A stretch of DNA of 64,000 bases from Schmidtea polychroa (Eukaryota): assembly GCA_044892525.1 (NCBI GenBank), contig CM097886.1, forward strand, positions 130,882,001 through 130,946,000, given 5' to 3'. The notes under the pieces are model-generated. The model searched no databases, was not told the origin of the DNA, and saw nothing but the letters and a program-made list of their open reading frames with translations. The translations under genes were made by a program, and so were the position numbers. This document shows, in pieces, positions 12,457 through 55,581 of this stretch (position 1 is the stretch's first letter; every line of letters starts with the position of its first letter).

Positions 12457-13516
12457 TGTTGGGTTTTAGATTACTTTAAGTCGGTTCCATCTGACTCCTC
12501 GTGTCCTTTAAATCAAAACAATAACGACCCAACGTATATTGAAATAACAAATTCACAATCCTTTATCACCACTTTACAATTAACAATCAAAATTCCGTTT
12601 AACCGATTCTCCGCTCGGTGTTGATGCTTTGATAAAGATAATATTCACCTTTTAGTTTCTTAGGTTCTCTTGACCAACGTTTTCCTCTTTTTCTGTTTGA
12701 TTTGATCCTTTTCACGCTTTTTATTCTTATTCTATCTCTTCTTTTTCCTTAATCTCCTAGATCCGTTTTCGCCTTTTCCTACGCTCAGTTTCTTCTTACC
12801 CTACCTGAGGCAAAATGCCAATTTTCTCTGATTTTCCCTTTCCTTATATACTCCTCGAAATCGGGATGACAAATGGTTATTGCCGAGCCAATCTTTCACT
12901 TGACATTTGCTTCCAAGTATCTGCTTCGGCTGTCACCCATAATGGTCCAACGAACCAAGATAATTAATGGCCCTTCCGGCCTTTCTACACGCACTATCTT
13001 CTCCTTGCTCTTTTCCAATTAATCATTGCGTCAAGCTAATGGGCCCAAATCTTCCTTTTGTTTACTTTTCTTCTTGTTTACTCAGCTCGGGTTTCCTTCA
13101 TCTCTCGGGTTCTCCACTGGCTCGGGTTTCCCATTAGCTCGGGTTTTCTATTAGCCAATTAATTAATTAATTAACATTTTCTGTTTTTACACATTTGAAT
13201 GCTTTTCGACCCTTCCTAACCATTTTCTGATAAATCCCTAATCATCATCTTGTTGACCATTAGCTAATCTATACCTGTCCCGTTTTCCCCATTCGATTTC
13301 GATGATTTTACCATTTATTGATTTTTCTCGGATTTCCGGATTCTTGCCTTTCGTAATTGCTTTTGGGCATTTTCTAATACTGCTTCCATCACACTTTCCT
13401 TTACTATCGATTCTGTGCATGATCATGCTTTTATTTGTCTTTTTCTTCACTTATTTTTTATTTAAATTATTAACCTAAATTTCATTTCAATTTATTTTAA
13501 TTTGCGGACCTCAACA
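12457..13516 (-). mobile_element. Solo LTR of the same family as the 26408-41041 element
   Basis: Reverse complement is colinear with the element's LTRs; TGT...ACA ends; 4-bp TSD GAAG (12453-12456 and 13517-13520); visibly more diverged and has 4 rather than 6 ACCCGAG motifs. Confidence 0.92.
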
Positions 13517-26407: not shown

Positions 26408-27489
26408 TGTTGAGGTCTGTAAATTAAAATTAAAAATTTAAATAAAATTTAGGATAATAATTCAAATGGAAAGTAAGCGAGGAAAAAAGGCAAATAAAAG
26501 CGGGATCGTGCACAGAATCAATAGTAAAGGAAAGTGTGACGGAAACAGTAATAGAAAATGCAAAAAGCAATTACGAAAGGCGAGAATCTGGAAATCCGAG
26601 AAAAATCAATAAATGGAAAAATCATCGAAATCGAATGGGAAAAACGGGACAGGTATAGATTAGCTAATGGTCAACAAGATGATGGTTAGGGATTTATCAG
26701 AAAAGGGTTAGGAAGGGTCGAAAAACATTCAAACGTATGAAAACAGAAAACGTTAATTAATTAATTAATTGGCTAATGGAAAACCCGAGCTAATGGGAAA
26801 CCCGAGCCAATGGAGAACCCGAGAGACAAAGGAAACCCGAGCCAATGGAGAACCCGAGAGACAAAGGAAACCCGAGCTGGGTAAACAAGAAGAAAGGCAA
26901 ACAAAAGGAAGATTTGGGCCCATTAGCTTGACACAATGATTAATGGGAAAAGAGTAAGGAGAAGATAGCGCGCGTAGGAAGACCGGTAGGGCCATTAATT
27001 ATCTGGATTCGTTGGACCATTATGGATGACAGCCGAAGCAAACACGTAGGAGAAAATGTCAAACGAAAGATTGGTTCGGCAATAACCATTTGTCATCCTG
27101 ATTTTGAAGAGTATATAAGCAAAGGGAAAATCAGAGAAAATCGGCATTTTGCCTCAGGTAGGGTAAGAAGAATCGAGAATAGTCGAGAGGTAAAAACGAA
27201 TATAGAGAAGTAGGGAAAAGAAGAGATAGAATTAAGAATACTAAAAGGTAAAAAGGAATCAAACCAAACAGAAGCCGAGGAAAACGAGAGTCAAGAGAAT
27301 CGAAAGGATCGAAAGGTGAATATCATTTGTTTGCAAAGCATCAACGCCGAGCGGAGAATCGTATAAAACTTTGATTGGTAATTGTAGCGTGATAATAAAT
27401 TGTGAACCTGTTGTTTCAATATACGTTGGGTCGTTCATTGTTTTGATTTAAAGAACACAGGAGTCAGAGAGAACCGACTTGAAATAATC
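26408..27489 (+). repeat. 5' LTR (last 12 bp missing)
   Basis: Colinear with 39948-41029; lacks the terminal CAAAACCCAACA; six ACCCGAG motifs with CCAAT boxes, TATATAA at 27112, AATAAA at 27394. Confidence 0.95.
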
Positions 27490-27770
27490 GTGATTGCAAG
27501 TCGGTGGAAAATTATTGAAAGTTAGTGAAAAAATTAATTGTTGAAAAAAAATAGTACCGACGTGATAGAAAGTCGGAGGAAATTATTGAAAGCTACTGAA
27601 AAAGAAATTATTAAAAATTTAGTACCGACGTGATTGAAAGTCGGCGGAAAGTTACTAAAGTTAGTGAAAAAGTTAATTATTGGAAAAGTACTACAGAAGT
27701 GAGTGAAAGTCGGCTGAGAATCATTAAAAGTAGTGAAAATTTGTGAAAATAGTGCTAACGAGATTATTAA
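27490..27770 (+). repeat. Leader tandem repeat (about 68 bp x4) with CCGAC-N10-GTCGG stem-loops
   Basis: Units begin GTGA(T/G)..(C/A)AAGTCGG; perfect hairpins at 27557-27576 and 27625-27644. Confidence 0.75.
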
Positions 27771-27886
27771 AGAATATTATTGGGAGATTTAAAAGAAGTT
27801 GAAAAGTAATTTTAAATTATTGTTTAACGTTTGAAGTTTAGCTCAAAGTGAACCGATACAACCTCAGAAGTCAGAAACAAGTAGAA

Positions 27887-30157
27887 ATGGCAAATGATAA
27901 TGCTGTTATGCCTCTCAATAGAGAGATGATTGATTTTGCAAGTTGCCAGAAATTACCCGTCAATCAATATGGAGGAGACCCTGTTGAATTTGCAGATTTC
28001 ATGGGAGATTATTATATGTACGCCTCAGCATACGGATGGACACAAGCCATTATGGTTCAGAGATTCCCACTCTATCTGAAGGGTGTGGCAAGAGAAGCCT
28101 GGCAGCAAGTCGACAAACGAAATGTTGGCAATGATTGGACAAAATTGAAGGATGCAATGGCACTGAAACTGGTTGGTGGAGATATCAAAAGAATCATGCG
28201 ACAGAAATTTTATAATCGAGTTCAAGGTCCAGATGAATCGGTCAGTGAGTTTGCTTATCATCTGACCACTTTAGCAGATAAAGCCTTCGAAGTCAAACCA
28301 GATCAAGCGGATATGGCCAAGCAGGTTAAAGAGCTGTTAGAAGATCAGTTTATAACCGGAGTCCACTCCGAAATTAAAAAGGCCCTATGTTATGTGGATT
28401 TTTCCAATTTCGATGAGCTCGTGAAGAAAGCCATGAAGATAGAGCTGAATTTAAAAAGTGCAAAAAGATCAGATGCTTTTGGAGTTAATGTGGAGAGACG
28501 TGAGCGATCAATTACGCCTGTGAGAGCACCATGGGATGAAAAGAAAATAAATCAAATCAGTAGTCCAATTTTGAGACCAAATAATAGATTTCAAGCCAGT
28601 AGATCAGCCATGAACGTACAATCAAATGGACAGGTAAATAATCCTCAATGCGAACATTGCAAAAAGTCTGGACACTACTCAAATCAATGTTGGTTCAAAT
28701 ATGGGAAAAATCCCAGCCCTAACAAGAGATTCACAGAAAACAAAGGGATCAGCAGTGATGTCGAATGCTATCGATGCGGAAAGAAAGGGCATATTAGCAG
28801 AAACTGTTTCACCAGATCAAGATCATCGTCAACGTCACCTTCACCACAAAGGGACAAAGTGAATACAAATGGACAGATACAATGTCATTCGTGCAAGGGA
28901 TACGGCCACATGGCGCGATCATGCCCAAGGAACTCAGAAAGATTCAACAGACCTATTTTAAAGAAATCAATCAGATTCCAAGAAGATATGCCAAACATTA
29001 GTAACATGACATATGCTCAGAGAGAGGAATTTCAAGACAAAATGGAAAAGGAATTTCGAGAAATGCGACAGAAGCTGAACAAACTAGTGGCTAAATTTGA
29101 ATCAGATGAGGAAACTGAATCTCATATGATAATTGGAACCGTGTCAGAAGGTGAAGGAAAACCTGCCATGAAAGTGCGAAAGCTCGCATCAGATGAGAAT
29201 CCGACTGCACTGTTAGCCCGAGTCGAAAAATGGCTTGAGAAAATGGAAGCTGACAACTCCCAGTTGAAACGATGGATCGCAGAACTCAGTGTGATGTCAC
29301 TAACCCAAAGTGAACTAAAGAGAGCCATAAATTTATGTGCAAAGTTATTCAAAGGAAACAGAGACGATGAGATACTTAAACAAATGCAAAAGTTTGGCAA
29401 GGCTTTACGGTCAACAAGGGATTTAGCTGATATCATAGTGGAAACGACGGGACTTGATAATGTGAAGTGCCAATTCCGTGTAAATGCCTACGGACAAATC
29501 AAAGACCTAAAGGAGCGAATACTGCGTCAATACAGTGGATGGCAAGTGCAACTAAAATTTGAGAATCGATGTCTGGAAGACGAAGAGTACTTAGTAGATT
29601 GCGGTCTGATACCAGGCTGGAAAAATAAAGTAAATGTCGTTAATGCTGTTAATACTTTGAATTCAGACAGACAAAATTGGGAAAAGATTCTAGCAGATTT
29701 ACAAGATACCCTGTGTGCAGGGAATAGAGATAAAATTAATGCGAGTATCGACTTCATAAGGAGCATCGAAATGGATCGAGACATGAAAGAAGGGTTGTTT
29801 GAATGTATCGTACCGTATACGAATAAACCGACGAGTTATCAGGCAAAGCTAAAAGAGGTAATCCGAAAACTAGGACATGATTATGAGGCGGCAGACGATA
29901 GTGCGAAGTCTTTGATAATAGCGTTAAATATTGCGGATCAAAGGATTGAATATTATCAGGAACATTGGAGTGTAAAAGCAAAGAAAATACGACAAAAAGC
30001 AGCGGAGATATTAGGTAATGACGGAATTATCGTGTTGACGTTCAAAGGACGAGAATTGGATGATGACGAATATTTATTAAACTACGGATGTAACCAAATT
30101 GTATTAATAATGTGTACGCAACAAAACAAAGTGATGAAATGGAAAGAGATGCGGTAA
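27887..30157 (+). CDS. gag: Gag with three CX2CX4HX4C knuckles, followed by coiled-coil/helical segments and two ubiquitin-like domains
   Basis: YGGDPVEFADF...W..LKDAM capsid-like region; knuckles at 28649, 28766, 28883; Ubl1 about 29429-29641 and Ubl2 about 29909-30123. The frame opens at 27842; first ATG at 27887. Confidence 0.9.
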   Translation: MANDNAVMPLNREMIDFASCQKLPVNQYGGDPVEFADFMGDYYMYASAYGWTQAIMVQRFPLYLKGVAREAWQQVDKRNVGNDWTKLKDAMALKLVGGDIKRIMRQKFYNRVQGPDESVSEFAYHLTTLADKAFEVKPDQADMAKQVKELLEDQFITGVHSEIKKALCYVDFSNFDELVKKAMKIELNLKSAKRSDAFGVNVERRERSITPVRAPWDEKKINQISSPILRPNNRFQASRSAMNVQSNGQVNNPQCEHCKKSGHYSNQCWFKYGKNPSPNKRFTENKGISSDVECYRCGKKGHISRNCFTRSRSSSTSPSPQRDKVNTNGQIQCHSCKGYGHMARSCPRNSERFNRPILKKSIRFQEDMPNISNMTYAQREEFQDKMEKEFREMRQKLNKLVAKFESDEETESHMIIGTVSEGEGKPAMKVRKLASDENPTALLARVEKWLEKMEADNSQLKRWIAELSVMSLTQSELKRAINLCAKLFKGNRDDEILKQMQKFGKALRSTRDLADIIVETTGLDNVKCQFRVNAYGQIKDLKERILRQYSGWQVQLKFENRCLEDEEYLVDCGLIPGWKNKVNVVNAVNTLNSDRQNWEKILADLQDTLCAGNRDKINASIDFIRSIEMDRDMKEGLFECIVPYTNKPTSYQAKLKEVIRKLGHDYEAADDSAKSLIIALNIADQRIEYYQEHWSVKAKKIRQKAAEILGNDGIIVLTFKGRELDDDEYLLNYGCNQIVLIMCTQQNKVMKWKEMR

Positions 30158-33100
30158 TAGTACCGTTTTGGCCTCTATATGAGGAAATGGATAATAATAA
30201 TGTGGAGATTAAAACTGAAGTTGTAGATGACCCAGGAGAAATTGATCAAGAAATTAATGAATTGCAGAGATTAGAAACAATGGAAAATGAGGAAATGGGA
30301 TCGGAAAATGAAGTTGCAAGGGATATCGAGGAAATGAGCACCGATAATAAGGTACTACCGAGCATAGATGAGATGAAGAGCGAAGAGAACTTCGTTGAAA
30401 CGAAAAATGACATTGAGATATGTCGGAAAAAACAGAATGATGCGGAAATTGAATCTTTGAGTTTAGATGAATCAAGCGAAACTGAACGTTTAGATGAATC
30501 AAGCAGGACTGAGCGAATATTAAAAAGTTTAGTTACGGAATTGTACTTGTTAGATGAAACTGAAACAGAAGGAGATGACACTTCGGAGGGGGAGAAAAGA
30601 GTTGTAAAAAGATTGGCAACGGAATTAAAGAGGAGATTACCGTCGATAATTAAAAGAAATTATGAAGAAAAGGAATTTTGTGAGGAAGCAGTAATTGAGG
30701 ACCTAACACGAACTGAGTTAGATCGAGATGTAATATTGACAGTGTTAGCCTATATAATATTGGAGATTGGTATTTATGGTTGTCTGGAAAATGACAATTC
30801 AAAATCATTGATAAAGAAAGCTACTGAAATGGTGAATAAATATTTGACTAAGTGGATCACAAACAATGGCGGATGGGAAAAGTTGATACAAAAGGCTGAG
30901 AGCCCAAAAACAGAGACAGTGAGGAAAAAGGGAAAACTCGCATTTCCATGGTTGATGATTTCTATTATTATGTTATTGGGAATAATAAACACGACGAATT
31001 CATTAGTGGCATACGACTGCTCCCAAACCGAAATGGGAAGAGTATATTCGTTGGTAAACGTAGCAGAGTGTTCGGATGCATATCCAGTAAAATTTAAAGT
31101 GACAAATCCAGTAAAATATTATGTATATCAAGAATCGGAGTTTCGACGAGCAAAGGTGAGAGAGTGTACAGTGAAACGAACTACTTTTGTATTTTATTGT
31201 GGAAAATGGAGCCACTCATCGATGGTGAAAATGCAATCGATACCTAGACCGATAGAAATGATTCCAGAGAATTGTTTGGCAGCCTTTCAAACAGGACAGT
31301 TGAAAATCAATGCAGATATCAAACTACAAGCAAAGCTTAACCATAAAATCCGTGAGACTGTAACCGTGCGAGGGATAATAAAGTCGAATGGTGATTGCCA
31401 AGGCGAGCCATACAAAGTAGACGATGCTATAATTGACAAAGCCGTGGTTGTAGAAGAGTACATGTCAGAATTAAGAGAATTTGATGGATCATTTGATGAT
31501 GATACTGGTAAACTACAAACACATCCATTCTGCACCATGAAACAATCTAGCTGTCAGACAGGAGAATCAATATTGGTGTACGATGTCGATACCAAAAAGT
31601 GCAATTTAGTGCAATTGAAGTCAATGAGTTTTAAAGAAATAACGGGAGAACAGATCAGGGAAAAGCCTGAGAAAATAAGAATGGATCCAGCAACGAGTAC
31701 AACAACAAGAATCACACCTCTACGGATGAAAGATACTCCAACAGTGTTAATGTCAACCTCGGAGGAAGATGGGATGCGATTCCTGAGAAAAGAAACTAAA
31801 ACAAAGTGTGGACAAAATGTCTATGAGACAAATTATAAAGGTATATATGTATCTCAGAAGATGATTACAGAGGCCCAAACAAACATACATGCCGGAGATA
31901 TTAAGTTGACAAATTACTTTAATAACAAAATAGATTATTTATTTCACTTTGGTCAAAATACTGTTGAAAATGTGTACCGAGAAGTTATAATAAATGATTG
32001 CAATCTCAACAAAGAAATACTCCGAAATCGGATGGCAATGGCTATAACCAATCCTAATTTGATAGCACCAATGTTAATTACAGAAAATGGGGTGTTTGCC
32101 AGAATCTTCGGTGAAGCACTATATAGCTATAAATGTAAAGCGGTACCAGTTAAACTGACAAAGTATGACCAATGCACCAACGAGTTACCAGTGAATTTAA
32201 ATGGAAAGTTGCGATTTATGGAGCCTGTAACACGAATCTTACTGGAAGAGGACGTGAAACCGAAAGTGTTACAGTGCAATAGATTGTTGGCACCACTATA
32301 CAGACTAACACCAGAATCTTGGATTGCATTACCAGATCATCGAGAAGTAAAGACACCGGAAAACTTAGAATTGACAGAATTACAATATCTGGTAAATTTT
32401 ACGTCGTTAGAGAAATTATCGCAAAGTGGAATTTACTCGAACGAAGACATTGAGGAAGCTCGCAGAAACTTGTTATTTCCATCAAAGAAAGAAAGAGTAA
32501 TAATGGAAATGGTAGATACAATTCTCCCAAGCGGAAGTGGGAAGGTAAATTACGAGTATTTGTTAACTCCAGATCATTACAAGAAAGCGACGTATAATAC
32601 AATGAAAAAGATCTGGGGAAAGTTTATGTTTATTGGACAAGCGTGTGCCGGATTGATTGGAATTTATGTAATATGTGTTGTAATCAAAGTGATAATATCG
32701 CAGGTCCTGTCAACACACAGGTTATACGCGATCACAGGTTGGTCGTGGAAACTAGTAATTGGGTGCATACCATTATTGGCTAGATTCTTCATTACTCATC
32801 ATCAATATCAGGAGTTGGAGATACTCAAGGCGCGAATATTAAAGAAGAAAAAGGTGAGCTACGCTAGTACTACCCCTTCAAGGGACGAGAATAATGACAA
32901 TGACAACGAGGGTGATAGTGCACCGTTATATGTTGACAATCAAGAACTAAGTGGAATGAATAAAGAAGCGTTGAGAACTTATCAAATCTTAAAAGAGCCA
33001 CTGTTGAATGCGAGTAGCGTAGACACGTTTACAAAATTGTGTATACCAAAATCATTTATGCAACCAGCACCAGTGTATCCAGTTGATCGATTACGAGAGA

Positions 33101-34950
33101 TGAAACCAGTGGAAAATATCGCATTACAATGTGAAGGAATAGTAGGAGAGAGAATCGAGCCTTCTAGCGCAGAGATCGAGAGAAAGAATATGTTAGGCTT
33201 ACCATGCAACTACTCATTGATGACATTAACAAAAAGAGGAAAGCAACCCCGAATATTTATACAAATGAACAAACATAAAGTGGAAGCTTTGGTTGATTCG
33301 GGATCTAGTCACACAATAATATCGGAAAATGTATTAAACGCGAAGGAGAAAATGCGAATAAAGCCTACCGACGAAATAGTGAGGTCATTATCAAAAAATG
33401 AATTAAACATAATTGGACAACTTAACGTCATATTCCATATTGGAGATCGAATAATAGCGCACGATGCGCTCATAATGAAGGGAAGTCCAGTACGATGTCT
33501 GATCGGCATGGATATATTAGAGCAGCTGGATGGAGTCTCACTTGATTTAAAGACAGGTAATTTGATAGCAGGAGAAACAGGAGAAATAATTCACAGGGCA
33601 GGTGAGGTGTTTGGGAATCAGACATTGACAATACCAAAACAATCGGAAATGGTGTATTGTGCAAATACCATGAGTATGGATAGTGGCGATTTTTTAAATG
33701 AGCCAAACCAGGCACTAGTCGAAAAATATGAAATACCGAGATGCGACCAAATAGTCAAAGTGGAAAATCAGATAGAGTCTGTACATGCAATGAAAAGTAG
33801 TAATAAACCAGTCAGCTACATCAATAAGATATTATATGTAGCAATAATGCTGATGTTAGTAACAGTTGCGAGCGGCAAAAAGATCGACTTACCATATGCG
33901 GTAAACAAAATCCGAGGAATGGAGAAAATACATATATATTCCACTCTAAAAAATATAGTATGGAGCTGTAAATGCGAGATCGCAGACCAAATAGAAATTA
34001 TTGATTTACTAGACAATACGGTACCAGTGGTAGAACTAAATTATGATAAAGATATATTTGCGGTACGAAAGTTAAAGCCAAATTTCAAATACCAATGGCT
34101 GTTGAGACAGAACATGTCAAAGTGGTACACGCAAATTCCGATAGAAGTGCACACAAAAGAGATGCGAAACTTGATTGAAATAGAACCAGAGATAAATGGA
34201 ATCAATATATCTTGGAAGCCAGTGGACTTGGTGAAAGTGCGAATCACATTTCAAGGGTTAAATGTCGACACCCTTAACTCGCGAAAATCATTTATCCGCT
34301 ATGAGAAATTGAAAATGAATCAAAATTATTCAGTTAATGCAAACTACTACGAGAACATATGCCTCGAAAATGGAACGGTAGTGAGAAACCAATGGTCACG
34401 ATTTAAGAGCGAGACCCAGTCTATCTATCTCAGAGACGAGTCAAATCGTATAACCCTGAGTGTTGGAAATGGACCGGTAACGATATATAGAAAATCAGGA
34501 AATGATGAAAGAGTTGTTATTATCTACAAACAAAAAACCCTGACTATATTAGATGCCGGTAATCATTTTTTTACACTTTACACTTCTGATTTAGAGACGG
34601 CATGGGAATTAACAGTTAAATATCAGCGATGGATAACCGAACCAGGCAGATGGCAAACAGTTTTCGTGGAAGTCAAGACAATCAATGAAACGAAACGAAA
34701 ATCATATACAACCACATCACCTTTCCAATTACCGACCCAAGAGACGACAAAACCTAACTCAAACAAACTAATGATGATAAATTCGGATTTGACAGTCAAC
34801 TATTGTGAATATCTCATTTACATTCTAATAACAGGTTTTCTTATCTTATCAATAACATTCATAATCATCACCATCTTGATATGTGTAAAAGAGAGACAAC
34901 TAACTATCCTTCAACCACCATCATATTCATATTATGAGACAAGACTATAA
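30112..34950 (+). CDS. Polyprotein: acidic linker, Bcl-2-like domain, TM/signal, class III fusion glycoprotein, TM, retropepsin, FN3-like membrane protein
   Basis: 1612-aa uninterrupted ORF in the -1 frame relative to gag. WITNNGGWE (BH2-like), AYDC/FYCG..SH/NELPV env motifs, LVDSGSSHTII plus LIGMDIL protease, second signal-like segment and C-terminal TM. Confidence 0.9.
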   Translation: MYATKQSDEMERDAVIVPFWPLYEEMDNNNVEIKTEVVDDPGEIDQEINELQRLETMENEEMGSENEVARDIEEMSTDNKVLPSIDEMKSEENFVETKNDIEICRKKQNDAEIESLSLDESSETERLDESSRTERILKSLVTELYLLDETETEGDDTSEGEKRVVKRLATELKRRLPSIIKRNYEEKEFCEEAVIEDLTRTELDRDVILTVLAYIILEIGIYGCLENDNSKSLIKKATEMVNKYLTKWITNNGGWEKLIQKAESPKTETVRKKGKLAFPWLMISIIMLLGIINTTNSLVAYDCSQTEMGRVYSLVNVAECSDAYPVKFKVTNPVKYYVYQESEFRRAKVRECTVKRTTFVFYCGKWSHSSMVKMQSIPRPIEMIPENCLAAFQTGQLKINADIKLQAKLNHKIRETVTVRGIIKSNGDCQGEPYKVDDAIIDKAVVVEEYMSELREFDGSFDDDTGKLQTHPFCTMKQSSCQTGESILVYDVDTKKCNLVQLKSMSFKEITGEQIREKPEKIRMDPATSTTTRITPLRMKDTPTVLMSTSEEDGMRFLRKETKTKCGQNVYETNYKGIYVSQKMITEAQTNIHAGDIKLTNYFNNKIDYLFHFGQNTVENVYREVIINDCNLNKEILRNRMAMAITNPNLIAPMLITENGVFARIFGEALYSYKCKAVPVKLTKYDQCTNELPVNLNGKLRFMEPVTRILLEEDVKPKVLQCNRLLAPLYRLTPESWIALPDHREVKTPENLELTELQYLVNFTSLEKLSQSGIYSNEDIEEARRNLLFPSKKERVIMEMVDTILPSGSGKVNYEYLLTPDHYKKATYNTMKKIWGKFMFIGQACAGLIGIYVICVVIKVIISQVLSTHRLYAITGWSWKLVIGCIPLLARFFITHHQYQELEILKARILKKKKVSYASTTPSRDENNDNDNEGDSAPLYVDNQELSGMNKEALRTYQILKEPLLNASSVDTFTKLCIPKSFMQPAPVYPVDRLREMKPVENIALQCEGIVGERIEPSSAEIERKNMLGLPCNYSLMTLTKRGKQPRIFIQMNKHKVEALVDSGSSHTIISENVLNAKEKMRIKPTDEIVRSLSKNELNIIGQLNVIFHIGDRIIAHDALIMKGSPVRCLIGMDILEQLDGVSLDLKTGNLIAGETGEIIHRAGEVFGNQTLTIPKQSEMVYCANTMSMDSGDFLNEPNQALVEKYEIPRCDQIVKVENQIESVHAMKSSNKPVSYINKILYVAIMLMLVTVASGKKIDLPYAVNKIRGMEKIHIYSTLKNIVWSCKCEIADQIEIIDLLDNTVPVVELNYDKDIFAVRKLKPNFKYQWLLRQNMSKWYTQIPIEVHTKEMRNLIEIEPEINGINISWKPVDLVKVRITFQGLNVDTLNSRKSFIRYEKLKMNQNYSVNANYYENICLENGTVVRNQWSRFKSETQSIYLRDESNRITLSVGNGPVTIYRKSGNDERVVIIYKQKTLTILDAGNHFFTLYTSDLETAWELTVKYQRWITEPGRWQTVFVEVKTINETKRKSYTTTSPFQLPTQETTKPNSNKLMMINSDLTVNYCEYLIYILITGFLILSITFIIITILICVKERQLTILQPPSYSYYETRL
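30937..32800 (+). CDS. env: Env-like glycoprotein domain, chuvirus/Monjiviricetes-type class III fusogen
   Basis: Signal FPWLMISIIMLLGII, then LVAYDCS, C..K.TTFVFYCGKWSH, GDCQG, CGQNVYETNYKGIY, YFNNKIDYL, GEALYSYKC, CTNELPV, FMEPVTRIL, SGIYS, and TM FMFIGQACAGLIGIYVICVVI. Family assigned from recalled motif pattern. Confidence 0.75.
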
Positions 34951-35131
34951 ATTGTGATCTGCATGCTATAAATAGTGTATAAAAATATATTATATTTATA
35001 TCAACAATGTGCATGTTTTATAAGTACCATAGGATGAACTGTGTAATTTGTTTGAGATTCGAAGCGAGGTGTTGATGCTTTGCGAATAAAGAGTGATACA
35101 AAAAAAAATAACTATCATTTAATTTCAGAGA

Positions 35132-35377
35132 ATGCAAGAAACCTCGGAGATGACATGCAAAGAGTGTAAAACAAGTACGCAAGAACTAAAGCAAAGGTTT
35201 CGTAGCATGCAGGGCAGAATAACAGATTTGGAGGAAGAAAACTTCCGTCTAAAAAGGCGGTTGGACCGTTTGGAAATCTTATTGTTTCAACACGAAGCCG
35301 ATTTCGCGATGTTTCGAATGAGAGTAGAAGAAATAGAGGAATCGGAAGATGATGGTGAGATAAATCAATTAGACTAA
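35132..35377 (+). CDS. Small coiled-coil/acidic accessory ORF (81 aa)
   Basis: ATG ORF just after a TTTAATTTCAG acceptor-like site; heptad pattern LKQRFRSMQGRITDLEEENFRLKRRLDRLEILL; GC-richer than flanks. Confidence 0.55.
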   Translation: MQETSEMTCKECKTSTQELKQRFRSMQGRITDLEEENFRLKRRLDRLEILLFQHEADFAMFRMRVEEIEESEDDGEINQLD

Positions 35378-35926
35378 AAAAATAAATTATTTAAACGGAC
35401 CCTGTTGGTGTTTTTTCGTCCTCGAGAGAAAAAAATAATAGTAAATAAATATAAGTAAATTAACAATCAAAGGAATAAACAAATTGATATAAAGAAATAA
35501 TTGGCAGTGATAAATAATAGTTAAATAAAAATAAGTAGATTACCAAGTAAATAATCAAATGAATAAACAAATTGATATAAATAAATAATTAAAAAAGTGA
35601 TAAATTAAATAAATGAATAATAGATAAAAATGAACAAAGTTAAACGAGCAAATAGAATAACTCAAATAAATGTTGCAAATAATGAAATGACTACCTTAAA
35701 TGAGCATTAGAAATAAATAATATTAAATGACTGATTAGTAATTAATGAATTAGCATAACTATATAGCAATGGGTAACCCACTGGGGCGAGAGAACAAAAT
35801 TATAAATAAGTAAGGAATAATTTCACATTAGTAGTAACAAAGACTAATCACGAAGAGGGACACAATTACCCCACCCTTTCTAGCATAAATTGAAAACAAA
35901 GGTATGCGGAACATTTATTCAAAGTT

Positions 35927-36229
35927 TTATTCGTCATCAGAGTCCAACAGAACGGGACTTTGAATGCCACAGTCCCATTCCCTGCGTACATTGCAAGGCG
36001 GGCGTCGTTCAAACCTACTGCCTGTATCCACACAGGCAAAGGTACGTTTCAATCCCTTTCGACGCGGTAACAAAGGGACCCTGAAAAAGAAATTAAAAAA
36101 CCTGTTAGTATAGCAGTCAAATAACCATTGCATAACATCGAGATGCTCAAACTTAGGTTCTGGGACAGCCTAAAATAGTAAGGGTTGAAAAGAAAAATGA
36201 AATAAATACTATGTAAAACTCCGTACCAT
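35927..36229 (-). CDS. Antisense spliced ORF inside the LTR element (about 66 aa if the ATG at 36229 is the start)
   Basis: Exons 36229-36227 (ATG), 36169-36126, 36080-35927; GT-AG introns of 57 and 45 nt; reads MAVPEPKFEHLDVMQWVPLLPRRKGLKRTFACVDTGSRFERRPPCNVRREWDCGIQSPVLLDSDDE*; AATAAA at 35919-35914. Confidence 0.55.
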
Positions 36230-36760
36230 GGCGCCCTCGACAAATAATTAGTGCAGGGAAGTAATTGATTTTAAGAATTACGTAATAAATTAATAAGTAT
36301 AAATACGGCTAAAATTGTCAGAAAAATACGAGTAGCTGTAATTAGAGGTTTGCTTTTAGTATAAATACAAAATCAAAAATCAAAAATATATGACCCAAAA
36401 CATGAGTGTGGTATAGGTAGTTGCATAAACAAATTAAAGTTAAAAAGTAAATAAGTTAATTTAATAAGCATCAATAAGTTAATTTAATAAGCAACACGAG
36501 CACTTGCAATCACCGGGGTTTGGCTACCCTGGACAGCGATTGCAAATGTTCGGTTACTATGAGGGTAGTTGAGGACAGCATGGTAAAAAGAATCACAAAT
36601 ACAAAAAATAACAAAAGATAAGTAATCACTTACGTCCATAGTAATTGAGGGATGGCGTTACTAAAATTCAAAAAAAAATATGAAAAAGAAAATATAAAAT
36701 GCTTACTTCAAGATGGGCAAGACAAAACTAACGAAAAGTGGTAAAGCAGAAACTTATATA

Positions 36761-36900
36761 GAACGCTTATCAGTACAGACTACGTTGACAAACTACAGGG
36801 TAATTAATTAGAAAGCTTATCAGCACGGCTACGTAAGAAACCACAGGGTAATTAATTATAGAGCCTATCGGTATCGGCTACGTCAAAAACCGCAGGATAA
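36761..36900. repeat. Degenerate tandem repeat, about 49 bp x3
   Basis: GCTTATCAG.AC.GCTACGT...AAAC.ACAGGGTAATTAATTA units. Confidence 0.7.
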
Positions 36901-37734
36901 GTAAAAATTCATTCGGAATATTAATGTTCATCGCAGATACCTTATCAGGCTGAGTAAACAAGTGATATCATGAGTCGGTCGGTGCGGGGGAGATTAACTT
37001 TTTACCATGCTGCGAGCGAAATAAACCAACAAGTTATTAATAACAAAAAATTATTTTTAAATCATATTATTAATAATAATGGTAATAATGATGAAAGAAA
37101 AAATATAAATAAAAAAATAAATAAATTACCTTGCGACTGGGAATAAATTAGACAAATATTTTGCACATAAAAATCGATCAAACCGTAAAGACACACACAC
37201 AGACAGACACACAAGCATATCCCATCAACTGCTCAACTCTGTTATTAACCACAATTTTATCCATATTCTTGGTAAACCGTATTCATCTTGAACAATAACA
37301 ACAACCACAGCTAATATCATCGCGCTACTAACAATATAGTATAAGAAATTTTCAATAAATTTTACTGTTGATTTCCACCAAAGTCACCAGTCTAATCAAT
37401 TAATGAATTCATAAACTCTCACACAAAAATTGTAAAAATGCAAATTGTAACAAAATATAATTTAATCAGATACTATTAAAAAATTTCTTTTTATTCTCAC
37501 CACATAACCAAAATAGGAGCAATATACACTTTCAAAATGCAGGAATATCTTTTTAATATCCTGAAATAATAAACTAAATGTACTCTGTAATATCCTAAAA
37601 TAATTAATTTCAATACTCTGAAACTACAATAACCTTAACAGACTGTCGTTAGTCTACTCAATTTATTAATTTTTAATAGACGTCAGATAAAAATTATTTC
37701 CCTCAATTAATAGACGCCCCGATAATCGGATAAA

Positions 37735-37821
37735 TAATAATAATAATAATAATATTGATAAAATAATAATATTGATAATAATAATGGTAATGATAGTGGT
37801 AATAACAGTAATAATTATAAC

Positions 37822-37867
<46 letters not shown>

Positions 37868-37895
37868 TTGATAGTAGTAATAATAATAGTAGTAG
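37735..37895. repeat. (AAT)n/(AGT)n compound microsatellite
   Basis: Direct reading. Confidence 0.9.
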
Positions 37896-39935
37896 TAGTA
37901 ATTTTTCAAGTTTATTTCTCATTTAAATTGATATCTCTAACATTTCAGGGAACTGCAAATATTATTACTCTTTCGTAATTTTCAAATAATTTCCAACTAT
38001 AATTTGCAAGCATTACACAAATGCCTAAATATTATTTTAAATGCTCAATTATATCCACTCAAATCCTCATGCTAATAAATAACAAGATTAATAACAATTT
38101 TATACAAATCATTGAATTGCTTTATAATTGCCGATATTTCATAACATCACATATAATTGTTACATAAAATGAATAAATAATAAACCTACTTCAATCTTAA
38201 AAAATATAAATTAATAAACCAAAAAAAAATCATTTGCTAAAAATATTTCAGAATATAAAAAGATTTTCATTATTTTATTGAACCTTCGATTTGAGCTGGA
38301 ATTCTGAGATTTGATCGACAGATTATAAATATATATCTCAAACCTGTGCTATAATTTTCATAATTCAATGTTGTCAGTGCATATCGATTTTTCCCCAACT
38401 TATCAATCATCGGTTTTAAGAATCAATGACTAAGAATAATTCGAATCTTTATACAATTAATACAAAAAAAAATAAAAATTAATCTAACCATTTTGTGTTT
38501 CTTCTTCAACGTTTTGTAGCATGCATGGTTTTTATAACCCAATCGTCAACCATAAATAAGTGTGAATGAAATTTAAGCCAAACTCTAATATAAAAAATAA
38601 ATATATTGTTGTTAAATTCGTTTAAATCAAGTGATTGAATTTTCATTTCCTGCTTTTAAAAAGCTATATTTTCTCTCTTTCAGCCGTTGACAAATGGCCA
38701 ATCAAATTGAAGAGAGTGTGTGTCATCAAAATTATTAGAGACACGACAATAATGATTTTATAAGCATCTCTTGTACATGTACACATGGAGAGAAATAATT
38801 TCATTACCATTACATACATACAACTGCAAACTGATTGGGTGTTGTATATTTTATTTACTTTCTGACAAAAATTAATCAGCAAATCCCATTAATCACCTCT
38901 ATTTTGTTTACATTGGCCAATCTCGGTTTACACGAGCAATTACGAAAAAGATTTATCTTATCTCTTTTTCAAGGCGTTTTGAGTCCATGATCGGCAATTG
39001 CCCGAAGCCGAATATATCGAAGAGAAAAAAAAATCCCCATTGATTAGAAATGTCTGATAACGACAGAACTAATACAATTAGAATATATTTAAAATCAAGA
39101 CCATTTTTTCAATTCAAACAGAAAATGTTTTTGGGTTTATAACAAAGGTATCGAAATGTTATATTTCTCTACAAAAAAATATATATATATATAATTACAC
39201 AATGTGAAATTTATCCTGAAGCTTATAGGATTGAAATTTTTAATTTATAAATTTTAAATCAAACTTATAATTTTAAAATGTATTATAAAATAAGGGGCAA
39301 ATTATAGTCGACACCATAAATAAGTCTTTTGAAAACTGTATTACTAAAAATGAAATGAAACTGTGATAGTACATTTTTATTTCAGTGAAACAAAAATAAA
39401 ATAAAAACAATTGCGCAAATAAGATTTGGACCGTGGATCCATTTCAGAGTGACGTTTTGGCTACGGGAATATCAACAAATGCAAATGGGAAATTAATAGG
39501 TCTTTTGGAAAATGAATTTTGAAAGTCGATTATTGCAATTTATTTGATTTACTATAAATTACCTGAAGTTATTGGGCAAATATTTGTTTGGGAAATATTT
39601 AAATAATTAATAATTTAGCCTTATTTTATTTAATGTATAATATATAATAAGTTAAACTAAAATCTTTAAATATAATTTAAAATAATTAAAACCAATAAAA
39701 TCAATAATTAATTAATTCATAGAGCAATTAAAATATAAAATTAATCTGAAAAATTAAAATGTCACGGTTGAATAAAAAAAAATATATCTTGAAGTAATAA
39801 TTCGGATAAATAGTAATAATAATAATAAGGGTAATATTAATAATAATAATAATAGTGATAATAATGACAACAATAATAATAATAATAATACATAATCACA
39901 GCAAAACATAGATTTCGAGAACGAAAAAATTTTTT

Positions 39936-39945
39936 AAGGGGGAGA
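39936..39945 (+). other. Polypurine tract
   Basis: AAGGGGGAGA, 2 nt upstream of the 3' LTR TGT. Confidence 0.85.
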
Positions 39946-39947
39946 TA

Positions 39948-41041
39948 TGTTGAGGTCTGTAAATTAAAATTAAAAATTTAAATAAAATTTAGGATAATAA
40001 TTCAAATGGAAAGTAAGCGAGGAAAAAAGGCAAATAAAAGCGGGATCGTGCACAGAATCAATAGTAAAGGAAAGTGTGACGGAAACAGTAATAGAAAATG
40101 CAAAAAGCAATTACGAAAGGCGAGAATCTGGAAATCCGAGAAAAATCAATAAATGGAAAAATCATCGAAATCGAATGGGAAAAACGGGACAGGTATAGAT
40201 TAGCTAATGGTCAACAAGATGATGGTTAGGGATTTATCAGAAAAGGGTTAGGAAGGGTCGAAAAACATTCAAACGTATGAAAACAGAAAACGTTAATTAA
40301 TTAATTAATTGGCTAATGGAAAACCCGAGCTAATGGGAAACCCGAGCCAATGGAGAACCCGAGAGACAAAGGAAACCCGAGCCAATGGAGAACCCGAGAG
40401 ACAAAGGAAACCCGAGCTGGGTAAACAAGAAGAAAGGCAAACAAAAGGAAGATTTGGGCCCATTAGCTTGACACAATGATTAATGGGAAAAGAGTAAGGA
40501 GAAGATAGCGCGCGTAGGAAGACCGGTAGGGCCATTAATTATCTGGATTCGTTGGACCATTATGGATGACAGCCGAAGCAAACACGTAGGAGAAAATGTC
40601 AAACGAAAGATTGGCTCGGCAATAACCATTTGTCATCCTGATTTCGAGGAGTATATAAGCAAAGGGAAAATCAGAGAAAATCGGCATTTTGCCTCAGGTA
40701 GGGTAAGAAGAATCGAGAATAGTCGAGAGGTAAAAACGAATATAGAGAAGTAGGGAAAAGAAGAGATAGAATTAAGAATACTAAAAGGTAAAAAGGAATC
40801 AAACCAAACAGAAGCCGAGGAAAACGAGAGTCAAGAGAATCGAAAGGATCGAAAGGTGAATATCATTTGTTTGCAAAGCATCAACGCCGAGCGGAGAATC
40901 GTATAAAACTTTGATTGGTAATTGTAGCGTGATAATAAATTGTGAACCTGTTGTTTCAATATACGTTGGGTCGTTCATTGTTTTGATTTAAAGAACACAG
41001 GAGTCAGAGAGAACCGACTTGAAATAATCCAAAACCCAACA
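39948..41041 (+). repeat. 3' LTR (complete, 1094 bp)
   Basis: TGTTGAGG...CCCAACA followed by TSD GCTT; AATAAA at 40934. Confidence 0.97.
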
Positions 41042-49888: not shown

Positions 49889-50399
49889 GTAGTATGATTG
49901 GAGCTCCCCCGGCCAGGAGCTCCCCGGCCACATATACCCCCTCCCTCCCTCCCCCCCCCCGGGAAAAAATTTTTTTTTAAATTTTTTGTTTTAATTAATT
50001 GGCCGGGCGGGCTCACACTTTTTTTCATCCCAAAAATTAATGTTCCTGCCAACAGATTTTATTGACCGATACCTCATCTTAAAGCTCAGTCCAAGACCTT
50101 TCGAATGAGCTATAGGTATCTTATATATCTTTAATAGTTTTAATGTTATTAACGTTTGATGACCACCATCTTTTCAACATTAAATTATTATTATTTTCCA
50201 AAATATTATTAATTGGCCTGGCGGGCTCACACTTTTTTTCATCCCAAAGATAAATGTTCCCACCAACAGATTTTATTGATCGATAGCTTATTTTAAAGCT
50301 CTGTGCAAGAACTTTCTAATGAGATATAGATTTTTATCATACGATGACTCATCACATTTTTAGAACAAAGACAATGACTCATCATATTTTTAGATTGAT

Positions 50400-50960
50400 T
50401 ACGTCATATTTTTAGAACGATGCCTAATATTTTTAGAATGGTGCCTAATATTTTTAGAACGATTACGTCATACTTTTAGAACGATGTCTAATATTTTTAG
50501 AACGATGTCTAATATTTTTAGAACTATTACGTAATCGATGTCTAATATTTTTAGAACGATGCCAAATATTTTTAGAACGATGCCTAATATTTTTAGAATG
50601 ATTACGTCATAATTTTAGAACGAAGTCTAATATTTTTAGAACGATGCCTAATATTTTAGAACTATTACGTAATCGATGTCTAATATTTTTAGAACGATGC
50701 CAAATATTTTTAGAACGATGCCTAATATTTTTAGAATGATTACGTCATAATTTTAGAACGACGCCTAATATTTTTAGAACGATTACGTCATACTTTTAGA
50801 ACGATGCCAAATATTTTTAGAACGATGCCTAATATTTTTAGAACGATTACGTCATACTTTTAGAACGATGCCTAATATTTTTAGAACGATGCCAAATATT
50901 TTTAGAATGATTACATCATACTTTTAGAACGATGTCTAATATTTTTAGAATTAATAATTT
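50400..50960. repeat. About 20-bp tandem array (AATATTTTTAGAACGATGCCT variants) with bZIP-like TTACGTAA/TTACGTCA cores; mirrored at about 54300-54860
   Basis: Direct reading; the same variants occur in mirrored order in the right arm. Confidence 0.9.
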
Positions 50961-51089
50961 TGTTTTAATTATCGATGATTATATAATTTTGTTTAAATCA
51001 TTGATTATATAATTCTTTTGTTTTAATTATAGAATACGTAATAATATAATTTTGTTTAAATCGTTGATTACATATTATTATTTTCTAAG

Positions 51090-51164
<75 letters not shown>

Positions 51165-51293
51165 CATATATACACCGAGTCTATCCGACAAAATATTCTG
51201 TCCCCCTATGGGTACTGCTCACAAATGTACTACTCACATTCAACAAGTCACAAGGGTACTGTTCACACTCAATATGTCGTAAATTAATATTAA

Positions 51294-51369
<76 letters not shown>

Positions 51370-51751
51370 TATTACGCGCACCGGGAATATTATTATCATA
51401 TATACTCTTAATCTATCCGACAAAATATTCTATCCCTTTATGGGTATTGCTCATATGGGTAATGGTCAAAGGTGTACTACTCACATTCAACATGTCTCAA
51501 AGGGTATAATATAATTATTATTAAATTCTGACCAACTTAAATCAATGAAGGGGTAGAACAAAAATATATTAAGTTGCGGTATTTTAAATTTAAAAATATT
51601 TTAAAAACTTATTTTGACACTAAAGTTTACTTAATTAACAAAGACATAATTATTGCACATGCTTTGCATAAATATTATTATTTTTTAAATTTTCAATATT
51701 TTCTTTTAAAGTATTAACATGCGCGGGAGTTATTATTATTATTATTATCAA

Positions 51752-51788
<37 letters not shown>

Positions 51789-52479
51789 GTTAATGAAAAA
51801 TCTAAAATATTTTCTACACACACACTCACACAACCATTAACCATTATTATTATCATTATTAGTGAAAACCTAAAATATTTTTTACACACACACACAACCC
51901 ATTAACCATTAACCATTATTATTATCAATATTAAAAACCTAAAATATTTTTACACACACACATACAACTCATTAAACTTATTATTATTATTATTATTATT
52001 GCAAATATTAGTCAAAAACCTAAAATATTATTTACACTCACACAACCCATTAACAATTATTATTATCAATATTAGTGAAAACCTAAAATATTTTCTACAC
52101 ACACACACACACAGCCCATTAACCATTATTATTATTGCAAATATTAGTCAAAAACATAAAAATACTCATAAACCATTATTATTATCAATATTAGTGAAAA
52201 CCTAAAACATTTTCCACACACACAACCCATTAAACTTTATTATTATTATTATTAAAATAATTTTTACACACTAGGTTATGGGGTAGAGAATTATTATATG
52301 TTTGCAGTATTCTGTATTTGCCTTTACATGAAATTTTCAATAAGGAGCGATAATTTTACACACACATTCTATATACACCCATGTTAAACAAGGTATGTGT
52401 ATATAGAATGTGTGTGTAAAATTATCGCTCCTTATTGAAAATTTCATGTAAAGGCAAATACAGAATACTGCAAACATAT

Positions 52480-53420
52480 AATAATTCTCTACCCCATAAC
52501 CTAGTGTGTAAAAATTATTTTAATAATAATAATAATAAAGTTTAATGGGTTGTGTGTGTGGAAAATGTTTTAGGTTTTCACTAATATTGATAATAATAAT
52601 TGTTAATGGGTTGTGTGAGTGTGTGTGTGTGTGTAGAAAATATTTTAGGTTTTCACTAATATTGATAATAATAATTGTTAATGGGTTGTGTGAGTGTAAA
52701 TAATATTTTAGGTTTTTGACTAATATTTGCAATAATAATAATAATAATAATAAGTTTAATGAGTTGTATGTGTGTGTGTAGAAATATTTTAGGTTTTCAC
52801 TAATATTGATAATAATAATGGTTTATGAGTGTTTTTATGTTTTTGACTAATATTTGCAATAATAATAATGGTTAATGGGCTGTGTGTGTGTGTGTGTAGA
52901 AAATATTTTAGGTTTTCACTAATATTGATAATAATAATTGTTAGTGGGTTGTGTGAGTGTAAATAATATTTTAGGTTTTTGACTAATATTTGCAATAATA
53001 ATAATAATAATAATAATAAGTTTAATGAGTTGTATGTGTGTGTGTAAAAATATTTTAGGTTTTTAATATTGATAATAATAATAATAATGGTTAATGGGTT
53101 GTGTGTGTGTGTGTGTAGAAAATATTTTAGGTTTTCACTAATATTGATAATAATAATTGTTAATGGGTTGTGTGAGTGTAAATAATATTTTAGGTTTTTG
53201 ACTAATATTTGCAATAATAATAATAATAATAATAATAAGTTTAATGAGTTGTATGTGTGTGTGTAAAAATATTTTAGGTTTTTAATATTGATAATAATAA
53301 TGGTTAATGGTTAATGGGTTGTGTGTGTGTGTAAAAAATATTTTAGGTTTTCACTAATAATGATAATAATAATGGTTAATGAGTTGTGCATGTGTGTGTG
53401 TAGAAAATATTTTAGATTTT
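52480..53420. repeat. About 55-65-bp CA/AAT-rich minisatellite, expanded in the right arm relative to the left (about 51790-52280)
   Basis: Repeated GTGTGT(G)TAGAAAATATTTTAGGTTTTCACTAATATTGATAATAATAAT units. Confidence 0.85.
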
Positions 53421-53428
53421 TCATTAAC

Positions 53429-53465
<37 letters not shown>

Positions 53466-53828
53466 TTGATAATAATAATAATAATAACTCCCGCGCATGT
53501 TAATACTTTAAAAGAAAATATTGAAAATTTAAAAAATAATAATATTTATGCAAAGCATGTGCAATAATTATGTCTTTGTTAATTAAGTAAACTTTAGTGT
53601 CAAAATAAGTTTTTAAAATATTTTTAAATTTAAAATACCGCAACTTAATATATTTTTGTTCTACCCCTTCATTGATTTAAGTTGGTCAGAATTTAATAAT
53701 AATTATATTATACCCTTTGAGACATGTTGAATGTGAGTAGTACACCTTTGACCATTACCCATATGAGCAATACCCATAAAGGGATAGAATATTTTGTCGG
53801 ATAGATTAAGAGTATATATGATAATAAT

Positions 53829-53969
53829 NNNNNNNNNNNNNNNNNNNNNNNNNNNNNNNNNNNNNNNNNNNNNNNNNNNNNNNNNNNNNNNNNNNNNNNN
53901 NNNNNNNNNNNNNNNNNNNNNNNNNNNNNNNNNNNNNNNNNNNNNNNNNNNNNNNNNNNNNNNNNNNNN
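53829..53969. other. Assembly gap (N run) in the right arm
   Basis: 141 N. Confidence 1.
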
Positions 53970-54076
53970 TGAGTGTGAACAGTACCCTTGTGACTTGTTG
54001 AATGTGAGTAGTACATTTGTGAGCAGTACCCATAGGGGGACAGAATATTTTGTCGGATAGACTCGGTGTATATATG

Positions 54077-54163
<87 letters not shown>

Positions 54164-55009
54164 CTTAGAAAATAATAATATGTAATCAACGATTTAAACA
54201 AAATTATATTATTACGTATTCTATAATTAAAACAAAAGAATTATATAATCAATGATTTAAACAAAATTATATAATCATCGATAATTAAAACAAAATTATT
54301 AATTCTAAAAATATTAGACATCGTTCTAAAAGTATGATGTAATCATTCTAAAAATATTTGGCATCGTTCTAAAAATATTAGGCATCGTTCTAAAAGTATG
54401 ACGTAATCGTTCTAAAAATATTAGGCATCGTTCTAAAAATATTTGGCATCGTTCTAAAAGTATGACGTAATCGTTCTAAAAATATTAGGCGTCGTTCTAA
54501 AATTATGACGTAATCATTCTAAAAATATTAGGCATCGTTCTAAAAATATTTGGCATCGTTCTAAAAATATTAGACATCGATTACGTAATAGTTCTAAAAA
54601 TATTAGGCATCGTTCTAAAAATATTAGACTTCGTTCTAAAATTATGACGTAATCATTCTAAAAATATTAGGCATCGTTCTAAAAATATTTGGCATCGTTC
54701 TAAAAATATTAGACATCGATTACGTAATAGTTCTAAAAATATTAGGCATCGTTCTAAAAATATTAGACATCGTTCTAAAAGTATGACGTAATCGTTCTAA
54801 AAATATTAGGCACCATTCTAAAAATATTAGGCATCGTTCTAAAAATATGACGTAATCAATCTAAAAATATGATGAGTCATTGTCTTTGTTCTAAAAATGT
54901 GATGAGTCATCGTATGATAAAAATCTATATCTCATTAGAAAGTTCTTGCACAGAGCTTTAAAATAAGCTATCGATCAATAAAATCTGTTGGTGGGAACAT
55001 TTATCTTTG

Positions 55010-55470
55010 GGATGAAAAAAAGTGTGAGCCCGCCAGGCCAATTAATAATATTTTGGAAAATAATAATAATTTAATGTTGAAAAGATGGTGGTCATCAAAC
55101 GTTAATAACATTAAAACTATTAAAGATATATAAGATACCTATAGCTCATTCGAAAGGTCTTGGACTGAGCTTTAAGATGAGGTATCGGTCAATAAAATCT
55201 GTTGGCAGGAACATTAATTTTTGGGATGAAAAAAAGTGTGAGCCCGCCCGGCCAATTAATAATATTTTGGAAAATAATAATAATTTAACGTTGAAAAGAT
55301 GGTGGTCATCAATTGTTAATAACATTAAAACTATTAAAGATATATATGATACCTATAGCTCATTCGAAAGGTCTTGGACTGAGCTTTAAGATGAGGTATC
55401 GGTCAATAAAATCTGTTGGCAGGAACATTAATTTTTGGGATGAAAAAAAGTGTGAGCCCGCCCGGCCAAT
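55010..55470. repeat. About 214-bp tandem unit; one more copy in the right arm than in the left
   Basis: AAGTGTGAGCCCGCC recurs at about 55020, 55234 and 55448; only two such sites in the left arm (about 50005 and 50215). Confidence 0.8.
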
Positions 55471-55581
55471 TAATTAAAACAAAAAATTAAAAAAAAATTT
55501 TTTTCCCGGGGGGGGAGGGGGGGAGGGGGTATATGTGGCCGGGGGAGCTCCTGGCCGGGGGAGCTCCAATCATACTACTAC

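Follow-up and report, generated by a model that had tools for sequence, protein, structure and literature searches.

Why does an LTR retroelement of the planarian Schmidtea polychroa encode, just ahead of its envelope protein, a stretch resembling a Bcl-2 protein, and what is the hydrophobic segment that joins the two? The original prediction, made from the 64,000 nucleotides of DNA analysed here (the window), placed a Bcl-2 fold within the polyprotein of a retroelement and proposed that its tail anchor had been reused as the Env signal peptide, so that signal peptidase would release a membrane-anchored anti-apoptotic protein. The fold and its setting hold up under profile searches, shuffles, AlphaFold and Foldseek; the account of the anchor and of the release fares less well. 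The features on which our argument rests are collected in Table 1.

Table 1. Features of the retroelement and its polyprotein, in window coordinates
Feature	Position	Strand	Evidence
Whole LTR element, planarian GAG-ENV-POL errantivirus/Burro type, defective copy	26408..41041	+	LTR ends, 4-bp target-site duplication either side
5' LTR	26408..27488	+	LTR comparison
Gag (capsid, three CCHC knuckles) and ubiquitin-like domain, N-terminal part of polyprotein	27842..30157	+	Pfam PF03732, PF00098 x3, PF00240 below cut-off
Acidic linker upstream of Bcl-2-like domain, weakly constrained	30181..30489	+	37 D/E in 106 aa; N:S 15:8
Bcl-2-fold domain	30505..30891	+	Pfam, PDB sequence, profile, AlphaFold, Foldseek, shuffle tests
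Bcl-2 domain, helix 1	30505-30546	+	AlphaFold model
Bcl-2 domain, long helix 2/3	30586-30666	+	AlphaFold model
Bcl-2 domain, helix 4	30682-30705	+	AlphaFold model
Bcl-2 domain, core helix 5 (BH1 position, no NWGR)	30724-30786	+	AlphaFold model
Bcl-2 domain, helix 6	30799-30843	+	AlphaFold model
Bcl-2 domain, BH2 helices 7-8	30847-30885	+	AlphaFold model
Predicted internal signal peptide of Env	30919..31002	+	PF24664 start, (-3,-1) rule, TxS
Env: gB-type/Monjiviricetes fusion glycoprotein ectodomain and TM helix (32641-32697)	31003..32697	+	PF24664 E 1e-94; TM scan
Retroviral aspartyl protease	33241..33534	+	PF13975, PF00077
Junction of missing ~2.9 kb (RT, RNase H, integrase), in frame	33776..33812	+	Comparison with sister copies
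Second signal-peptide-like segment, ectodomain and C-terminal TM helix (34822-34881)	33820..34950	+	TM and signal-segment scans
3' LTR, 1094 bp	39948..41041	+	LTR comparison

Within a 1618-aa frame (30094-34950), the segment 30505-30891 is a real homolog of the Bcl-2 family, diverged and constrained. All five peptides quoted in the original prediction are present (30505-30546, 30601-30639, 30718-30762, 30841-30885 and 30943-30987), as is LVAYDC, the start of Env, at 31003. The proposed check against the PF00452 HMM returned the expected family as the best match (E 0.006) but at 17.5 bits, short of the gathering cut-off of 31.4; the equivalent domain of a second element family scores up to ~30 bits. 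Word-based protein searches with the domain gave no match at E<=0.001, and in a PDB sequence search the 52 matches listed at E<=10 consist entirely of Bcl-2 and Bcl-xL (best E 0.03). A HMMER library search yielded 15 matches, from which P0012, an unrelated repeat protein, was dropped in later counts. Profiles connect the element domains to the family in both directions. Built from 17 element sequences only, a profile retrieved Bcl-xL at E 6.6e-5, and the best 60 of its 98 matches all belong to the Bcl-2 family; one built from 11 element domains ranked Bcl-2 ORFs at the top of 953 ORF segments (best E 3e-11), these segments having been drawn from loci selected for containing Bcl-2. Conversely, a profile of nine host or Maverick Bcl-2 domains from the same genome scored the window domain at 23.4 bits, a value reached by none of 1988 scored shuffles (maximum 11.6; reversed sequence 1.4). 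Given these reciprocal profiles and shuffles, we rejected a chance resemblance to Bcl-2.

The predicted structure agrees. AlphaFold returned a seven-helix bundle with the anticipated central hydrophobic helix 5, here of 21 residues (pLDDT 79, pTM 0.74), from an alignment that included two non-element rows, one host and one Maverick; an element-only alignment gave a pLDDT of 69 and Foldseek matches to the same family. Every row listed by Foldseek against the PDB is Bcl-2, Bak, Mcl-1, Bcl-xL or Bok (probability 1.00, TM by query 0.59-0.73), with a best E of 2.7e-3 and no listed row at E<=0.001 for the full or the element-only model, and in the viral library viral Bcl-2 models predominate among the highest-ranking named rows. 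The ESM Atlas ranked Bcl-2-like 15 and BID first (0.91), a recognition below threshold and useful as a lead only.

Selection appears to have maintained the domain. Among variants shared by at least three of 30 copies, its N:S is 6:15 (ratio 0.11; binomial p 1e-6 against neutrality), a figure biased downward because these copies are the best protein matches to the domain itself. In the same copies the domain resembles Env (6:27) and differs from the acidic linker (15:8; Fisher p 0.02); late Gag stands at 4:24, and the signal segment, at 0:1, has too few changes to inform. The independent evidence of constraint is conservation across families.

The element that carries the domain is 14.6 kb long, with 3 differences between its LTRs over 1082 bases. 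Several defects mark the window copy: it has a frameshift near 30095, it has neither RT nor integrase, and its primer-site junction is damaged, with ~32 bases absent at the end of the 5' LTR relative to a sister copy. Of 29 other copies inspected, 24 could be compared at this place, and none of them has the frameshift. The original prediction had treated the Bcl-2-like domain and Env as part of a unit of its own, 'ORF2'; because sister copies run from Gag to integrase in a single 3,334-aa ORF, we consider this unit an artefact of the break in the window copy and reject it as a separate gene. The sister copy L031/L032 (~17 kb) holds Gag, CCHC knuckles, a ubiquitin-like (Ubl) domain, the Bcl-2-like domain, Env, protease, RT, RNase H, integrase and a terminal membrane protein in one frame inside its LTRs; the window copy derives from this arrangement but is broken. 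In this 781-Mb genome (four large contigs), 150 of 1703 candidate matches were scored; their identities range from 91 to 100%, and nine lie in frames of 3,333-3,336 aa. The junction left where RT, RNase H and integrase are missing recurs at 28 genome places (22 exact, six with one mismatch; control 0), which defines a non-autonomous subfamily retaining Gag, Bcl-2, Env and protease. No joint that would produce a separate Bcl-2-Env message occurs among 15 of the 17 joints listed for four contig sets, contigs being silent on splicing and expression.

Several other features of the element and its surroundings were recorded. Between Gag and the Bcl-2-like domain there are a ubiquitin-like domain (~29435-29614) and a probable second one (~30030-30110), and by eye neither has a diglycine end. 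The ectodomain beyond the integrase position (33820-34950; L032:796-1890 in the sister copy) has no Pfam match, and the ESM Atlas offers a weak fibronectin type III lead for it (0.88, below threshold). Downstream of the polyprotein, still within the element, a short ORF (35133-35378) has the look of a coiled coil. Elsewhere in the window there are an inverted partial copy of the same LTR (12790-13364, 91-95% alike) and a large, near-perfect palindrome of tandem repeats (49931-55537).

As originally proposed, a single hydrophobic segment separates the Bcl-2-like domain from Env, and cleavage by signal peptidase directly before LVAYDC is likely. The segment is built like a signal peptide, with a basic n-region, a 17-aa h-region (30937-30987) and a polar c-region, and the predicted cut falls between 31002 and 31003. 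The match to the Env profile PF24664 begins on the hydrophobic stretch itself (profile position 5 at window 30955, and positions 4-8 in the eight relatives with a listed start), a start that is not fully independent evidence, as PF24664 may contain retroelement sequences. At one register, 15 of the 19 sequences compared (five from the same genome and 14 of the 15 library matches) satisfy the (-3,-1) small-residue rule and the other four miss it, while at eight shifted registers 0-7 of the 19 do so; among genome copies, these positions read TxS in 28 of 29. Of 29 copies, 27 keep an open frame over this junction, and the length of the h-region varies between 12 and 22 aa among relatives. The same order of Bcl-2-like domain, linker, basic stretch, hydrophobic stretch and xAYDC is shared with the sister family (40% identical to the window family), the second family (24-25%), a Burro1-like element (18%) and public relatives (within 18-40%). 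In PMC13524379, a signal peptide or TM is described as bordering gB-type Env ectodomains. Together, these features make it likely that the segment is the signal peptide of Env itself.

The surface that a Bcl-2 protein would offer to its partners has changed. In the part of the original prediction that concerned BH motifs, the BH2-like assignment stands: WIxNNGGW is retained in 29 of 29 copies, and across 17 sequences G130 is invariant and W131 nearly so. The BH3-like assignment does not. The helix in question (30601-30639) has no Asp of the Bak/Bax type and is not conserved between element families, and a functional BH3 was rejected for these reasons. Canonical BH1 carries the NWGR signature and BH3 a conserved Leu and Asp. 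The prediction had already remarked that NWGR is missing at BH1, and the alignment extends this from the window domain, where DRDV stands instead of the pro-survival motif, to all 11 element domains, in which both W and G are absent; the basic residue is kept in nine of the 11 and lost in the window family. In the same alignment, W is retained in eight of nine host or Maverick Bcl-2 domains. Judged by these residues, the binding groove of the element domains is non-canonical.

How would such a protein be processed? Taking the observed fold, domain order, conserved junction and single ORF as given, and drawing on known membrane-protein biogenesis for insertion, cleavage and topology, we infer that the internal signal would insert at the ER during translation, that signal peptidase would cut before LVAYDC to deliver Env to the lumen, and that the TM helix of Env would bring protease and polymerase back to the cytosol. 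The cut signal peptide would then stay behind as the ER-membrane anchor of the Gag-Ubl-Bcl-2 half. Since this half amounts to ~1,050 residues in intact copies, Gag and the Ubl domains included, a free Bcl-2-like protein would need a further cut, and the release by signal peptidase envisaged at the outset is not what the polyprotein would yield. The element protease would likely make that cut later, freeing the anchored Bcl-2-like piece from Gag; no protease site was identified ahead of the Bcl-2-like domain.

We therefore give a probability of roughly 60% to the reading that a Bcl-2-fold module and an Env signal/anchor together would provide a membrane-bound, host-modulating function, likely promoting survival through a non-canonical surface and probably not through the textbook NWGR/BH3 contact. 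We favour a survival-promoting role because related elements carry IAP/TRAF cargo, because of the Burro1 IAP, and because viral Bcl-2 proteins are often motif-less. The neighbouring Burro1-like element also encodes BIR-RING and TRAF/MATH proteins, the IAP of Burro1 is reported to protect stem cells (as cited in PMC13465017), and according to PMC7022251 it is common for a viral Bcl-2 protein to function without BH motifs or to act outside the groove. A more elaborate version, with the odds clearly against it, would give one helix two jobs: the cut Env signal would also anchor a captured Bcl-2-fold protein fused to Gag, tether the capsid at the Env membrane and, once the protease has acted, leave an ER suppressor of cell death working beside the Burro IAP.

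Tethering could also be the whole purpose. In this alternative, which we consider unlikely, the Bcl-2 fold would be a structural, matrix-like spacer, and the retained signal anchor would keep uncleaved Gag at the Env membrane so that capsids are enveloped in cis; core and capsid anchors in HCV and flaviviruses work as such membrane tethers. It would fit the position of the domain, always directly ahead of the Env signal in the families examined, the retention of core helices and BH2 alongside the loss of groove residues, and the persistence of Gag-Bcl-2-Env-protease in the 28-copy subfamily that has lost RT and integrase. However, Gag is separated from the domain by the Ubl domains and by a long, weakly constrained acidic linker, an architecture to be expected of an accessory protein released separately, and other Burro cargo is apoptosis-related.

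The original view of the junction, that a host Bcl-2 was captured together with its tail anchor, that the anchor replaced the signal peptide of Env and that the product is a canonical anti-apoptotic Bcl-2 binding the BH3 helices of Bak/Bax, is improbable. In the window family the anchor does lie 20 aa past BH2, near the normal Bcl-2 spacing, and the host gene nearest the element domains (L047/L092; E 3e-11, HH probability 91) has an apparent C-terminal tail exon; canonical activity could likewise draw on the many viral Bcl-2 proteins that work without BH motifs (PMC7022251). Yet the segment is registered to Env and not to BH2: its distance to BH2 ranges over 20-56 aa in the 12 sequences that allowed a measurement, whereas that to the first residue of Env is short and similar. 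It also bears the signal-peptidase pattern and lies inside the Env profile, and although it follows BH2 it is internal, has the anatomy of a signal peptide and would become C-terminal only if cleaved. Its hydrophobicity (best 12-mer KD 3.04) exceeds that of four host or Maverick Bcl-2 tails from the same genome (2.10-2.25). A second internal signal-like segment follows the integrase, with no Bcl-2 ahead of it. A canonical mode of action is further opposed by the loss of NWGR in all element domains, and signal peptidase alone would leave the domain joined to Gag. A tail-anchor origin of the segment is thus disfavoured. We stop at this verdict because a free-standing viral outgroup was not found: an Env protein search returned four proteins, none of them a free-standing viral glycoprotein with its own start, and a literature search for an independent viral outgroup of the signal peptide gave nothing useful.

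The phylogeny suggested for comparison with host Bcl-2 genes bears on the donor. In a tree of 20 domains, the element domains fall on one side of a branch (97/92), while the tie to the host gene L047, in a grouping that also takes in Maverick L058, reaches 93/93, short of the starred level, in an unrooted tree with long branches. With insufficient support, long branches and no root, we name no donor; L047/L092 is a candidate relative of it. This host Bcl-2 gene (L047/L092:6051-6485; G000:C1, ~268.54 Mb) has an intron after BH2 and matches the element domains better than any other cellular gene does. Next best against the element profile is a set of small, multi-copy Bcl-2-like genes (L058-L063, L051-L056 and L090/L091); L058 adjoins a TBP-like ORF and lies near integrase- and capsid-like ORFs, surroundings that we take to resemble a Maverick/Polinton. 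Seven near-identical host Bcl-2 gene copies with NWGR intact form one cluster (L036-L042; G000:C4, 89.9-90.8 Mb).

That the domain is a decayed, functionless passenger or a chance resemblance is very improbable: single-sequence scores do lie under cut-offs and the canonical BH1 and BH3 residues are lost, but the reciprocal profiles and shuffles, a fold preserved in families 18-40% identical, a frame kept open over the junction and the low N:S all oppose this, and cross-family conservation appears largely to refute it.

The Bcl-2-like domain and its position before Env are already known for Burro/errantivirus polyproteins. Burro elements are giant, gypsy-like LTR retrotransposons described from Schmidtea mediterranea (GYPSM1; Jurka 2007 and Grohme et al. 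2018, each as cited by Arkhipova and Yushenova 2019, PMC6431247). That paper describes a single polyprotein with Gag and three CCHC knuckles, a Ubi/SUMO-like domain, a BCL2-like domain, Env in frame between BCL2 and the protease, and then a dUTPase-like domain, RT, RH and IN, a plan that the window family closely resembles; it credits the BCL2-like motif in Burro-2 to -4 to Grohme 2018 and calls for experiments. A signal peptide or anchor at the junction is not discussed for Burro in that text, and Burro is mentioned without Bcl-2 in the portions seen of PMC8532177 and PMC11410931. In the literature searched we found no functional test of the domain and no discussion of the signal/anchor junction, which Grohme 2018 and Lee 2026 may cover. 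The window family differs from Burro in being compact (~17 kb and 3,334 aa, against 4,873 aa for Burro), in having no MATH, BIR or ankyrin match in its scanned ORF, and in having a second membrane protein after integrase. Identity with Burro1 proper (>30 kb; MATH/TRAF, BIR, ankyrin) was rejected on the lengths of the window copy and its sister (14.6 kb and ~17 kb) and on cargo, which is of this kind only in neighbouring L033/L034. That locus is the Burro1-like element, which lies on the minus strand beside the sister copy; it has BIR-RING, TRAF/MATH and ankyrin ORFs and repeats the junction of Bcl-2-like domain, signal and Env.

The closest described relative is Smed_errantivirus_2, an HSV/gB-type GAG-ENV-POL errantivirus (Chary and Hayashi, eLife 2026), whose Env segment, in the supplement to PMC13524379, differs by eye from the window Env at 5 of 251 residues (~98% identical), a closeness that points to a Schmidtea-type planarian as host. 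That paper lists 215 copies, with the order GAG-ENV-POL and an Env flanked by a signal peptide or TM; a word search found bcl, apopto and ubiquitin absent from its main text and bcl absent from seven supplements. Unlike Smed_errantivirus_2, the window copy is frameshifted and belongs to a subfamily without RT and integrase. What we add is modest: the segment can be argued to be the signal peptide of Env, likely to serve afterwards as an anchor, and cleavage would tether Gag and not release Bcl-2.

With cellular and viral Bcl-2 proteins (PF00452; Bcl-xL, Mcl-1, Bak, and those of herpes-, pox-, irido- and asfarviruses) the window domain shares a helical bundle, a hydrophobic helix 5, a BH2 of the form WIxxxGGW and a hydrophobic segment C-terminal to it. 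It differs from them in lying inside a polyprotein, in having neither NWGR nor the BH3 aspartate, in scoring below the Pfam cut-off, and in an anchor that is a predicted cleavable internal signal and not a C-terminal tail. Bcl-2 homologs are a classic cargo of large DNA viruses, and an LTR retroelement that carries one at >100 copies would represent the same logic of host control in a transposon. The conserved signal/anchor junction offers a concrete, testable model of its processing, one that bears on how planarian cells may tolerate, or benefit from, these elements.
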